Source of the DNA: Escherichia coli
GTDB taxonomy: Bacteria; Pseudomonadota; Gammaproteobacteria; Enterobacterales; Enterobacteriaceae
NCBI RefSeq assembly: GCF_046105845.1
Contig: NZ_CP151004.1
Reading direction: 5' to 3' (one strand)
DNA: 64,000 nt
Below are positions 40,188 to 47,284 of the stretch, in pieces. Position 1 is the stretch's first letter, and each line of letters opens with the position of its first letter. The position numbers were made by a program, and so were the translations under genes. The notes beneath the pieces are model-generated. The model did not search any database. It saw only the letters and a list, made by a program, of their open reading frames with translations, and was not told the DNA's origin.

Positions 40188-40299
40188 TCATTATTTATTT
40201 GTTTTGCTGACATGTTGTATACGACAACGTGTCAGCAGTTTGACTGGTATTATAACGAATATATTGTAATGTTTTCTGGTGTTATTAATTGTTGTTTTA

Positions 40300-41253
40300 T
40301 TACCATATATCTATGGGTTTTGTTTTCTGCTCATCTAAACAAAATGCACAGATGTAAGCCCCCTTACTTCGGTTGTACTGAACCGTTTCTAAAGCAGAGT
40401 CAAGATGTTTACTATCAAAGTTCCAGCTTTTTTCCATAACAGAAACACATTTTCTGCAATAGAAACTTTCTTTTGAGTTAGTATCTCCTGAATCATTTTT
40501 AGTGTAGCCAAAGAATTTTTTTGCTGATTCCTTTGAACATGCGGAAATGGCTGCAGTGAACTCATAATGAGTTTGAAGCATAGCCCATACAATACCTGAA
40601 AATTCTTCATCCTCGTCTTCATCTAGTCCTATATTAATGCCGCCAGAGGAATGTATTGCTTTATATTTATACCTATGCCATATCCAGTGTGCTGATTCAG
40701 TATTTAGATAGTTGTGAGCACGTACAACTGATGTGAAAATTAGCTCTGGCATTATATCTGTTTTTTTATCAACCGTATGCATAAAACGATTTCTTAGAAT
40801 GCGCATACTATTAAACCAAGTAATAAAGTCATCAGGCAGTGATTTAGAGGCGAAAGTATTATATACTTTAATTAAATCTTGGGCGTCTAATGTGTGGAAG
40901 TCTGAAAATGAAATGTTACCTTCACTATCAGGTTTAGGTGTATTGCGAGTTGCATTCGTGATAAGTAGATAAGGTGATATTTCGACGATAAGTCCTTTTA
41001 GTCTGAATTCAATGGATTGAAGTATCAAATTAAAAGATGTAATCAATTTTGGTCTAGCAAATAACCAATAATGCTCTAAATTTTTAATATCTGATTCTGT
41101 ATAGAATTTAGACGTTTTACAATAACTATTCCAAAGGTTTATATCTCTGTAATCATAAGCTAAATCGGCAATTTTTTCCCAAGCCTCATTTACCATGTGG
41201 TCAGCCATTGTATAAAAATCAGTCTTTGTTGGAATGTCAGTTATCATTATCAA
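40300..41253 (-). CDS. Hypothetical protein with HEPN-like Rx4H motif and C-terminal CxxC…CxxC zinc ribbon (candidate defence/Abi ribonuclease)
   Basis: 317-aa AT-rich ORF; motif RILRNRFMH (R154-x4-H159); C266RKC269 … C302AFC305. Confidence 0.65.
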   Translation of the reverse strand: MIMITDIPTKTDFYTMADHMVNEAWEKIADLAYDYRDINLWNSYCKTSKFYTESDIKNLEHYWLFARPKLITSFNLILQSIEFRLKGLIVEISPYLLITNATRNTPKPDSEGNISFSDFHTLDAQDLIKVYNTFASKSLPDDFITWFNSMRILRNRFMHTVDKKTDIMPELIFTSVVRAHNYLNTESAHWIWHRYKYKAIHSSGGINIGLDEDEDEEFSGIVWAMLQTHYEFTAAISACSKESAKKFFGYTKNDSGDTNSKESFYCRKCVSVMEKSWNFDSKHLDSALETVQYNRSKGAYICAFCLDEQKTKPIDIW

Positions 41254-41484
41254 TCTACCTTTGGGTCTTTATTGTTGTCTATCAAGATATAATATTCAGG
41301 CTGGAGTGGCTAATGTTGATCTACTTATTTTCTCCCGGTAAGTCAGTTTATCGCGATATAAGCCGCATTTGATTTTGGCGACTATGGTCGTGTTAGGTAT
41401 GTATCTGGCGTGTTACTGCGCCAGATTAAATATAAACCAATAATATTAAAGGGTGTTACTCTCTTGACAGATTTAGGGAACAAA

Positions 41485-41679
41485 TCACTCGTCAGCTGAC
41501 TCCCAAGTATCTTTCAGAGTTTCCTGAACAAAAGTTTTAGCTGAATCTTTATCGGCGGTGCGCCTAACAGAAAAACCATCGTTGCTGGTGGCTTTTACGA
41601 TCATCTCCACATCGTCATAATGCTCGCCAATGTATTGGGTTAATTCTTCCTTTAATGCGTCTACAGCGCCGTTTGGCAT
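41485..41679 (-). CDS. Small acidic hypothetical protein (64 aa)
   Basis: ORF-track ORF in AT-rich island, flanked by more than 200 bp non-coding on both sides; no recognisable motif. Confidence 0.45.
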
Positions 41680-42023
41680 TTGGTCATTTTGTCTTTGGCT
41701 ATGGAGATCTCAATACGCATAACATTTCTTTTGTACTGCGTTTGTAGACAGTATTATTCTTATCTGTGTAAATAAACAGTATCAAGACTTCGTTTTAGCT
41801 GCATAAGAAAAAAGAGATGGATACATTCGGAAAGATTTTGATGGTGGTAGGCTAAGTGAATAGCCTAAAGGTGTTTTACCCCAATTATTCCCCGGTATTT
41901 CTCCGCATAAAAAACAATCATAAAAACAACAGCCATAATAGGCTGGTTCTTAAGGGATTTTTGGTCCACGAGAGAATTTGAACCTCCGACCCCCGACACC
42001 CCATAATGGTGTAATTAATCAGG

Positions 42024-42392
42024 TTAAATATTTAGCAGATCCTCTACAATATCATTAAACCCAGATGCCTGTTTAGATACAGAATTGAATAAGTCTCTAA
42101 GTGCTTGTGTTTGCTCAAAAGTTTCCCAAAGTGTTTTATAACTTGGCGTTACAATTGCTAATACTAAGCCTTCCGCCCATGACCATTCATGTTCATCAAA
42201 ATAGTAGCGATATTTTCTGCTGTATATAACAAAATCCTTTTCCTTATATTTAGCATGAAACACAACTTGAATTATATCCTGTGTACCATTAACAAGGTTT
42301 TCAGGCGCATCAATTGCCATCCAATTTATCATTTTTTGGACAGTTAACTTATTTAATGAAACAATTAGCTTTGTGGTTTTATCGTTATGCAT
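42024..42392 (-). CDS. Hypothetical protein (122 aa), second gene of two-gene operon
   Basis: AT-rich ORF starting 2 nt after the stop of ORF 42395-42856. Confidence 0.6.
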   Translation of the reverse strand: MHNDKTTKLIVSLNKLTVQKMINWMAIDAPENLVNGTQDIIQVVFHAKYKEKDFVIYSRKYRYYFDEHEWSWAEGLVLAIVTPSYKTLWETFEQTQALRDLFNSVSKQASGFNDIVEDLLNI

Positions 42393-42394
42393 AA

Positions 42395-42856
42395 TTAGTC
42401 CAGTTGCATATCTTTCACAATTTCGTTAACTCTTGAGTTGAGTATACTCAACTTCTCATAGAGCTTCCAGGCTTGGTCTTGGTCATTGATATTAATGGAG
42501 ATTTCTTTTCTTCGAAAGATTCCTTTGGGTTTGACTTCATCAAAAAATATATCAATCTTTGAGCGTTCCTTGGTTGGAAGCCTGCTGAAAAGGCTTTCAG
42601 TTAGCACTGCACACTCAGTAAACTCCTTACGTATAAATTCTTTCTGAGTAACCCAGTCTCCAATAGCATCATTTATCAATGAGGCTTTTTTTTGAAGATT
42701 GCTATGGATTTCAGGTATTCGAACCTTGTTTCTGAGAGTGGCCTTCAATGAACGCGTCGTAAAAAAAAGTTTTACAGTTACAACAAAACCGACAATACCC
42801 GCTAGGGAGGATATGTCAGTTACCGTCTGTGATAGGGGCCAAGTCAGGATATCCAT
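42395..42856 (-). CDS. Hypothetical membrane-anchored protein (153 aa, one predicted N-terminal TM helix)
   Basis: Hydrophobic stretch SSLAGIVGFVVTVKLFFT near N-terminus; AT-rich; immediately downstream of ssrA terminator. Confidence 0.6.
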   Translation of the reverse strand: MDILTWPLSQTVTDISSLAGIVGFVVTVKLFFTTRSLKATLRNKVRIPEIHSNLQKKASLINDAIGDWVTQKEFIRKEFTECAVLTESLFSRLPTKERSKIDIFFDEVKPKGIFRRKEISININDQDQAWKLYEKLSILNSRVNEIVKDMQLD

Positions 42857-42887
42857 GATGAAAAATCCAATGCTTAAGTTGATACGA

Positions 42888-42940
42888 AAAAACCCGCATA
42901 TGCGGGTTTTTTCGTCGCTCGGGAGCCGCGGCTCCTTTGC
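42888..42940. terminator. Tandem hairpins downstream of ssrA (bidirectional terminator-like)
   Basis: AAAAAACCCGCATATGCGGGTTTTTT palindrome flanked by A/T runs plus GGAGCCGCGGCTCC palindrome followed by T-rich tract. Confidence 0.6.
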
Positions 42941-43037
42941 GTATCCTTTTTTGTCTCCTCACCGTCTGGTCGGTGTCTTGCTGAGACTTCTAACTTCCTG
43001 TTTTTGTTGGTGTTGTCCTTGCACCGTTCAATCATGA

Positions 43038-43400
43038 TTGGTGGAGCTGGCGGGAGTTGAACCCGCGTCCGAAATTCCTACGTCCTCGGTACTACATGCT
43101 TAGTCAGTCTTTACATTCGCTTGCCAGCTGCGGACGGACACGCCACTAACAAACTAGCCTGATTAAGTTTTAACGCTTCAACCCCAGGCAGGGCTTCCAC
43201 GCGATCTCTTTTGGGTTTGACCTCTCTTGATCCCCGTCCTAAGAGCGGAGGCTAGGGAGAGAGGGCTCTAAGCAGGTTATTAAGCTGCTAAAGCGTAGTT
43301 TTCGTCGTTTGCGACTATTTTTTGCGGCTTTTTACGAGGCCAACCGCCCCTCGGCATGCACCTTGGGTTTCGCAAATCCCGTCGAATCCAGAATCAGCCC
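43038..43400 (-). ncRNA. ssrA: tmRNA (SsrA)
   Basis: Reverse complement reads GGGGCTGATTCTGGATTCGACGGGATTTGCGAAACCC…GGTTCAACTCCCGCCAGCTCCACCA, including tag-peptide coding region; boundaries within about 1 nt. Confidence 0.97.
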
Positions 43401-43615
43401 CAATGTGTAACGGTAAGTATACCAGATTCATGAGTGCCATGACCAGCCTCAATGGCGTTATCGTTAAAGATTTAGCACCCATGTAGCCTGATTTTTATTC
43501 GATTAAGCAATGGGATGGCAACATTTTCGTCGGATGTGATAGCCAATAAGATGTGCATTCGCGCCGCCGGAGAGGGAGGCGCGGTGAGGAACTGGTCAAT
43601 AATTGGAGTGCAGGT

Positions 43616-47199: not shown

Positions 47200-47284
47200 A
47201 GTTGTTTTCCTGTATGAAAAACCATTACTGTTATTGTGTACAGTATAAACTGGTTTTATATACAGTAAAGAGGCTGGCGTAAAA

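Follow-up and report, generated by a model that had tools for sequence, protein, structure and literature searches.

The AT-rich segment beside ssrA in an Escherichia coli genome is the remnant arm of a lambdoid prophage and carries a predicted HEPN gene

We analyzed a 64,000-nucleotide (nt) stretch of Escherichia coli DNA (NZ_CP151004.1, hereafter the window) in which an AT-rich segment of about 2.85 kb (40188-43037) abuts the 3' end of ssrA, the transfer-messenger RNA (tmRNA) gene. We found that this segment is the accessory arm proximal to the attachment site (att) of a lambdoid prophage, making up its last ~4 kb, and that a deletion with an insertion sequence (IS) at its boundary removed the rest of the prophage, a conclusion that we regard as nearly certain. 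As an overall explanation of the locus we favor, with moderate confidence, a prophage-arm remnant carrying a putative HEPN abortive-infection gene, an SOS module containing a dinI-like gene, and a pair of genes for proteins of 153 and 122 amino acids (aa).

An ssrA prophage reduced to one arm

An earlier note on this DNA, made from the letters alone, had described an AT-rich island next to ssrA bounded on its far side by a phage tail-fibre/Tfa remnant and an IS3 element, and the layout was borne out on both sides. ARAGORN and Rfam place ssrA with its 3' end facing the segment, and GC content is 0.32-0.39 over 40200-42800 compared to about 0.47-0.53 on both flanks. The four same-strand open reading frames (ORFs) of 153, 122, 64 and 317 aa that it listed are all present on the minus strand, although the 64-aa ORF belongs to a dinI-like gene that carries a frameshift (dinI') and the 317-aa frame probably starts two codons later than given. 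The main features are as follows.

37781-39038, minus strand: IS3-family element of 1258 bp (termini TGTAGTGG...CCACTACA)
39039-39603, plus strand: side tail fibre gene, C-terminal remnant cut by the IS (identity with the intact phage starts exactly at 39039)
39603-40187, plus strand: intact gene for Tfa, the tail fibre assembly protein, convergent with the cargo genes (ORF list; RefSeq in HS and intact prophages)
40300-41253, minus strand: gene for the predicted HEPN protein with C-terminal zinc ribbon, 317 aa from TTG 41253 (ORF list)
40300-41247, minus strand: the same gene read as 315 aa from ATG 41247 (RefSeq, homologues)
41485-41679, minus strand: 64-aa ORF, the downstream frame of the dinI-like gene (ORF list)
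41485-41720, minus strand: dinI-like gene, frameshifted (PHROG 189; RefSeq)
42024-42392, minus strand: 122-aa gene (ORF list)
42395-42856, minus strand: 153-aa gene (ORF list)
42923-43038, minus strand: att arm sequence just downstream of ssrA (96% identical copy at the far end of the intact 2017-02-2CC prophage)
43039-43401, minus strand: ssrA (tmRNA), the integration target (ARAGORN; Rfam RF00023, 292.8 bits)

By megablast, the whole segment is present in 12 of 5,426 complete E. coli genomes (4 of the 12 being assemblies of strain HS), and it is 99.7-100% identical to copies inside intact prophages. Record NZ_CP148393.1 (L003; pZ1323HEC0010-3), a 44.6-kb circular 'plasmid', is a complete lambdoid phage genome with the order int, ParA, two hypothetical genes, att, 153, 122, dinI', 317, Tfa, tail fibre and J, continuing to head, terminase, lysis and Q genes and the repressor region. 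Window positions 39039-43070 are continuous with this genome at 99.7% identity and reach 32 nt into ssrA; the att core is the last 32 nt of ssrA (43039-43070), identical at 31 of 32 positions in L003. This circular form may represent a phage-plasmid, or else the assembly may have picked up a prophage that had excised or was replicating. We also observed that its ParA-family gene and two uncharacterized genes sit between int and attP.

The matches also include an intact prophage of ~40 kb with the same four genes, integrated in ssrA of strain 2017-02-2CC (L017). Its order is ypjA, att copy, Dam methylase, AAA ATPase and integrase at one end and Tfa, 317, dinI', 122, 153 and ssrA at the other. 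Over the stretch that starts in the tail fibre and extends 32 nt into ssrA, the window is 99.5-99.7% identical to L003 and L017; what it lacks is L017 4527-44387 (39.9 kb), and the IS fills the gap exactly. Gone with it are the integrase and the distal att copy, all the early, lysis, head and tail genes, and the ypjA 3' end. On its two sides the IS is flanked by different 3-bp sequences (CAG and TAT); a target-site duplication is therefore absent, which is what an IS-adjacent deletion should leave. The same element truncates the 3' end of ypjA/ehaD, an adhesin-like autotransporter gene (33806-37780) that is short by ~720 nt relative to L017 and whose ORF continues into the IS.

This deletion explains what is absent. 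We found no integrase ORF between the IS and ssrA in the window because the 39.9-kb deletion removed the integrase end, and the 64-kb window contains a single full att core and no second one because the deletion took the distal copy. The locus thus shows the collinear near-identity of a lambdoid prophage, att core included, and lacks the integrase and second att, which makes it a remnant and not a prophage. The 'integrase-less island' of the earlier note is therefore integrase-less but not free-standing, being the cargo end of a lambdoid prophage, and the structure of this apparent orphan, now fully accounted for, is that of ordinary prophage decay. At the distal end of the intact prophage, L017 5294-5441 matches window 42923-43071 at 96% identity and consists of a degenerate ssrA 3' end with ~110 nt of downstream sequence. 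The repeat flanking the 2017-02-2CC prophage is accordingly ~140 bp and exceeds the 32-nt core; it may be the leftover of an earlier integration. Between int and the distal att, the same prophage end (L017 5514-8226) carries genes for a Dam-type methylase and a PtuA/GajA-like AAA ATPase.

In phage lambda, the b region lies between tfa and attP and its genes are transcribed from pL. The arm described here resembles the b region and lambdoid 'morons' between tail-fibre genes and attP in its position and its orientation relative to int, and shares with them low GC, module-by-module swapping between related phages, and dispensability. Its genes are unrelated to ea47, ea31 and ea59 of the b region, however, and this arm survives alone after loss of its phage.

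A solo HEPN and zinc-ribbon protein

The earlier note could name no family for any of the four proteins. This stands for the 153- and 122-aa proteins, whereas the 64-aa product is DinI-like (PHROG 189) and the 317-aa product, we conclude with high confidence, has a HEPN fold with a catalytic-type motif. The protein forms an all-alpha, up-down helical bundle and carries the Rx4-6H motif of the HEPN superfamily as RNxxxH (R154-N155-x3-H159), which is invariant in 22 close homologues. Across 58 homologues of 23-54% identity, the invariant residues are P8, L127, R154, N155, H159, W190, C266, C269, C302 and C305. Two motifs could be placed in the gene from the alignment of homologues.

40777-40794, minus strand: RNxxxH motif
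40339-40458, minus strand: four cysteines (CxxC...CxxC zinc ribbon) after the HEPN core

The start codon is probably ATG 41247, giving 315 aa, on which RefSeq and all homologues agree. A word-indexed search returned 40 clusters of this family, in Enterobacterales and Acinetobacter, and an exhaustive profile search returned 598 representative clusters (50% identity) ranging from Proteobacteria to Cyanobacteria and Planctomycetes, all with HEPN and zinc ribbon and many of the longer relatives with a second Cys4 unit. The gene is under strong purifying selection, with a ratio of nonsynonymous to synonymous substitution rates (dN/dS) of 0.06 against the Salmonella and Leclercia orthologues. The 317-aa protein has no match in PADLOC, NCBIfam, PHROGs or Pfam; PADLOC, suggested as a check by the earlier note, returned 0 families at E<=1 for all four proteins. 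Profile and single-sequence searches of the PDB gave nothing for the 153-, 122- and 317-aa proteins, and a literature search with their RefSeq accessions turned up no paper.

No partner gene is conserved beside the HEPN gene, so the protein probably works alone, to judge from its sequence neighborhoods. In particular, it lacks the adjacent MNT gene of a HEPN/MNT type II toxin-antitoxin (TA) system; in the window it is flanked by dinI' and tfa, and in other genomes by unrelated genes. The company that its homologues keep includes a defence island with AbiH, Mrr, a Cap4/AAA_22/SEC-C protein and an AAA_15 ATPase; an EcoRII restriction-modification (R-M) system on a Salmonella conjugative element; and an OLD-like ATPase-Toprim gene at the end of a Leclercia prophage. 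Other homologues lie in the early region of an Acinetobacter prophage and, alone, at a Pectobacterium chromosomal hotspot.

The family is related to known defence proteins at a distance. HEC-08 (PADLOC PDLC04162) is a single-gene defence system with a DUF3644-type HEPN domain and C-terminal zinc fingers (Payne et al., bioRxiv 10.1101/2024.01.29.577857) that protects cells against phage and needs its motif histidine to do so (bioRxiv 10.1101/2024.01.29.577857); DUF3644 was placed in HEPN by Anantharaman et al. 2013 (PMC3710099). Among 20 distant members of the 317-aa family, 8 match PADLOC DUF3644 (E<0.01) and 3 match HEC-08, the best HEC-08 match covering residues 70-305 (E 4.7e-6). In an hhalign comparison of the family with Klebsiella HEC-08, FNSMRILRNRFMH pairs with FDKVRKHRNRVVH (E 5.5e-5, probability 66%), with the likeness confined to ~48 columns around the motif. 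The architecture is also that of HEC-08, a single gene of ~300-360 aa in which an N-terminal or central HEPN domain with Rx4-6H is followed by C-terminal zinc-binding Cys4 units and which has no conserved partner, although HEC-08 has several zinc units compared to one zinc ribbon in the E. coli protein. On these sequence comparisons, the 317-aa protein probably represents a divergent sister family of HEC-08, related to it but not a member. HepS of the Salmonella prophage Gifsy-1 (PDB 9oik), an abortive-infection anticodon nuclease triggered by a siphovirus tail-tip protein (PMC13043305), is non-toxic when expressed by induction from a plasmid (PMC13043305). Like the 317-aa protein, it is a solo HEPN protein with canonical motif and no partner gene, encoded in the accessory slot of a lambdoid prophage. 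The 317-aa family thus falls among the solo HEPN defence proteins, a familiar kind represented by HEC-08, HepS and ApeA. Tail-assembly-interference (Tai) systems were also checked and are unrelated.

The position of the gene points the same way as its architecture, and the hotspot logic of the earlier note proved right. In ssrA prophages of Klebsiella, Leclercia and Cronobacter, the interval between the 153/122-aa pair and the tail fibres holds variable cargo: SRAP, UmuDC, DinI and an invertase, as well as a TIR/ThsB-like protein, a trypsin-like protease, an IS-truncated HEC-08, a Tad2-like gene, and GmrSD with HEPN. The ssrA-proximal prophage slot is therefore a genuine accessory and defence hotspot, and in Klebsiella a true HEC-08 occupies the equivalent slot. 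That Klebsiella gene (L007 11866-12717; PADLOC E 9.5e-118) is missing ~78 positions from the start of the profile and borders a DDE transposase gene, so an IS probably truncated it.

A mosaic arm with a dinI-like gene and an uncharacterized gene pair

Judged by comparison with related prophages, the arm is a mosaic of three modules: the HEPN gene, the dinI-like gene with its LexA boxes, and the 153/122 pair. In strain 2020N21-246 (L002), only the 317/dinI' part (window 39040-42011) is present, as the terminal portion of an intact lambdoid prophage that has tRNA-Pro as its integration site. Between the 122-aa gene and dinI', the window retains a 48-nt relic of a tRNA-Pro 3' end that has lost 2 nt; by alignment, this relic is a fossil att core at the junction of an ssrA-type module (att and 153/122) with the dinI'/HEPN module, and it indicates that the latter came from a phage that integrates at tRNA-Pro. 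In CFT073 (L004), a different ssrA prophage keeps dinI' and has, right next to ssrA, an AbiTii-domain gene in place of 153/122 (L004 20540-21460; PADLOC E 4.5e-33). The 306-aa CFT073 protein in this slot had been considered as a homologue of the 317-aa protein and was rejected on identification as AbiTii. The smaller features of the arm are listed here.

41734-41781, no strand assigned: two LexA (SOS) boxes over a promoter-like site, upstream of the dinI-like gene (pattern matches)
41920-41945, minus strand: terminator-like hairpin and T-run after the 153/122 pair (consensus scan)
41962-42009, plus strand: tRNA-Pro 3' relic (alignment with tRNA-Pro of strain 2020N21-246)
42887-42912, minus strand: phage-supplied intrinsic terminator after ssrA, AAAAAACCCGCATATGCGGGTTTTTT (read directly from the sequence)

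The dinI-like gene matches PHROG 189 DinI at E 1.1e-17 and NCBIfam DinI at 37.7 bits, under the 111-bit cutoff. Its first 14 codons are in another frame, and the 64-aa ORF is the second frame; RefSeq labels every copy that we saw, intact phages included, 'DinI-like family protein, frameshifted'. The gene shares with DinI, the SOS protein that binds RecA filaments, and with prophage DinI-like genes both a sequence match and upstream LexA boxes, but differs in the frameshift after codon 14 and in a score below the NCBIfam equivalog cutoff. With neither an intact frame nor a full-length match above the cutoff, it is by sequence a DinI homologue in the form of a pseudogene or truncated gene. The first LexA box is an exact TACTG-N10-CAGTA (41734-41753), a pattern with one further exact occurrence in the 64 kb, the recN operator at 47226 (47226-47267), our positive control; the second box is CTGT-N8-ACAG (41764-41779). 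Both overlap a promoter-like site, TTGATA-18-AAGAAT, at 41785-41756. A consensus scan found no terminator-like site on the minus strand from dinI' to the HEPN start, and SOS-induced read-through into the HEPN gene may occur for this reason, although we consider such SOS control of the gene no better than tentative.

The 153- and 122-aa genes are separated by a 2-nt gap, and their homologues are adjacent at every locus examined. Among 5.8 billion sequences, the 153-aa protein forms about 10 clusters and the 122-aa protein about 9, all in Enterobacteriaceae. In E. coli, Klebsiella, Leclercia and Cronobacter, the pair is the first to follow ssrA. In a divergent metagenomic phage, however, a 40%-identical pair begins 19 nt downstream of an unrelated integrase gene; there is no intervening terminator and no ssrA core, so the pair accompanies integration modules and not ssrA as such. 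The 122-aa gene has a dN/dS of 0.07-0.13, and the 153-aa gene, compared with Klebsiella, has proportions of nonsynonymous and synonymous differences (pN and pS) of 0.11 versus 0.80.

The 153-aa protein has an N-terminal membrane helix at about residues 15-33 (hydropathy peak 1.89 at residue 24) and no match in Pfam, PADLOC, NCBIfam, PHROGs or PDB. The 122-aa protein is acidic and has no match in PADLOC, NCBIfam or PHROGs; its Pfam matches are non-significant, and those to BrxA and DUF4130 (E 0.05-0.07) were rejected as noise. We connected the two proteins through a Gly-Ser linker and modeled the resulting single chain using AlphaFold2, which gave a low-confidence model with a predicted local distance difference test (pLDDT) score of 52.8. 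Residues 42-150 of the 153-aa part are helical, a four-helix soluble region with pLDDT of about 65-89, and the 122-aa part is below 55, leaving its fold and any interface uninterpretable. Foldseek searches with the 153-aa part returned DUF4760, DUF2489 and DUF2730 (E 3e-6 to 6e-5), which are leads only, with high root-mean-square deviations and a query model of low to moderate confidence, and searches with the 122-aa part returned YbjN-like proteins, a lead only, from a poor model. The three DUF families resemble the modeled 153-aa protein in their size of ~150 aa and N-terminally anchored helical layout, but they have no known function and no Pfam sequence match to it. The 153-aa protein also contains RIPEIH (R46-x4-H51, nt 42704-42721), fully conserved in the 40%-identical homologue (L025 8513-8995). 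We rejected this as a second HEPN motif, as the string falls within the helix that directly follows the membrane anchor, contains a proline, and comes with no HEPN match.

The ssrA terminator (42912-42887) lies ~30 nt before the 153-aa start codon. A consensus scan missed it on account of its short loop, and the hairpin was read directly. An Rfam Thr_leader match at 42870-42916 was rejected at 27 bits against a 55-bit threshold and is this same terminator hairpin. From the sequence, the pair probably relies for its expression on transcription that continues past ssrA or, in the phage, past int. In the neighboring tfa gene, the Rfam IS009 candidate small RNA matches the 3' part at 39946-40144 on the plus strand (222.6 bits; gathering score 117).

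Defence and competing explanations

We consider an anti-phage role in abortive infection the slightly likelier reading of the HEPN gene, by analogy with distantly related HEC-08 and functionally analogous HepS, from which we infer both ribonuclease (RNase) activity and anti-phage function. The HEPN protein would be a latent RNase, activated during infection by another phage, and once active would cut tRNA or other RNA and so abort the infection; the LexA-controlled dinI' promoter may also read into its gene. The suggestion in the earlier note of a defence or abortive-infection locus is therefore plausible for the 317-aa gene, with real but indirect support from its fold and motif, its remote link to HEC-08, its defence neighbors and the slot in sister prophages, and this support does not extend to the 153/122 pair. 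As to the pair, we can only guess, and with some doubt, at exclusion acting at the membrane or an accessory function early in lytic growth. It is less likely still that the pair is an unrecognized two-gene membrane-associated system riding with integration cassettes and that the HEPN RNase is directly controlled by LexA. On that reading, the pair could provide a new superinfection exclusion or defence system, or membrane-linked control of integration and excision, and direct LexA control, if true, would link abortive infection by an RNase with the SOS response.

Several results weigh against our overall explanation. The 153-, 122- and 317-aa proteins were found in none of 50,697 deposited phage genomes by tblastn, and consequently no phage biology is attached to them. 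The E. coli 317-aa protein itself matches neither the HEC-08 nor the DUF3644 profile of PADLOC at E<=1, and its link to HEC-08 is transitive and weak. The fused model of the pair is of low confidence. The scan found no sigma-70-like site between the ssrA terminator and the 153-aa ATG, and because no promoter is predicted after that terminator the pair may be silent in this remnant. Finally, all four genes run in the same direction as int in the circular phage, as do the lambda b-region genes, and they could serve the lytic cycle of the phage rather than the lysogen.

This last point leads to the main competing explanation, which we judge unlikely, that the genes, like those of the lambda b region ('ea' type), are accessories of the phage lytic cycle and not defence genes expressed in the lysogen. 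An early leftward promoter would transcribe them through int and attP under antitermination, the RNase serving in host shut-off or counter-defence and the membrane protein in exclusion during lytic growth. Such a scheme fits the location of all four genes downstream of int, the metagenomic phage in which the pair follows directly on an integrase gene without an intervening terminator, and the strong terminator with no promoter-like site that precedes the 153-aa gene in the integrated state. However, the dinI'/HEPN unit has its own promoter-like site with LexA boxes and is split from the pair by a terminator-like site; HEPN homologues are also found outside phages, in chromosomal defence islands and beside R-M systems; HEC-08, the nearest tested relative, defends cells; and low GC with module-wise swapping fits the behavior of morons.

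There are two further alternatives. The segment might be inert wreckage in this strain, with ORFs that have not decayed since a recent deletion and that contribute nothing, an improbable reading but one with which several observations agree: identity of 99.7-100% to the copies in intact prophages means that selection has had no time to leave a trace here, dinI has already become a pseudogene, and the pair has no promoter. The dinI frameshift is common to intact phages, however, and is therefore not decay of this remnant; the region upstream of the HEPN unit is intact, the families are under strong purifying selection elsewhere, and this alternative concerns present activity rather than gene identity. 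We give still less credence, regarding it as very improbable, to the proposal that the HEPN protein is the toxin of an addiction (TA) module that stabilizes the prophage, with an unrecognized antitoxin, and not an infection sensor. No MNT or other small partner is conserved beside the HEPN gene, its neighbors vary with context (dinI', ATPase, R-M system, ASCH), and it remains intact in a remnant stripped of all else without an obvious partner.

If a HEPN abortive-infection gene in a prophage-arm remnant is the correct explanation, this locus is a clean example of a defence-type gene outliving its prophage. The HEPN and zinc-ribbon family is unannotated and is missed by current annotation and defence-finder profiles, and its addition to defence models would provide labels for many 'hypothetical' genes. 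The invariant 153/122 pair at the edge of the slot poses a small and tractable question, and the ssrA-proximal slot, with AbiTii, TIR, GmrSD, OLD-like, HEC-08 and the HEPN protein described here, is a compact hotspot that can be mined for further systems.

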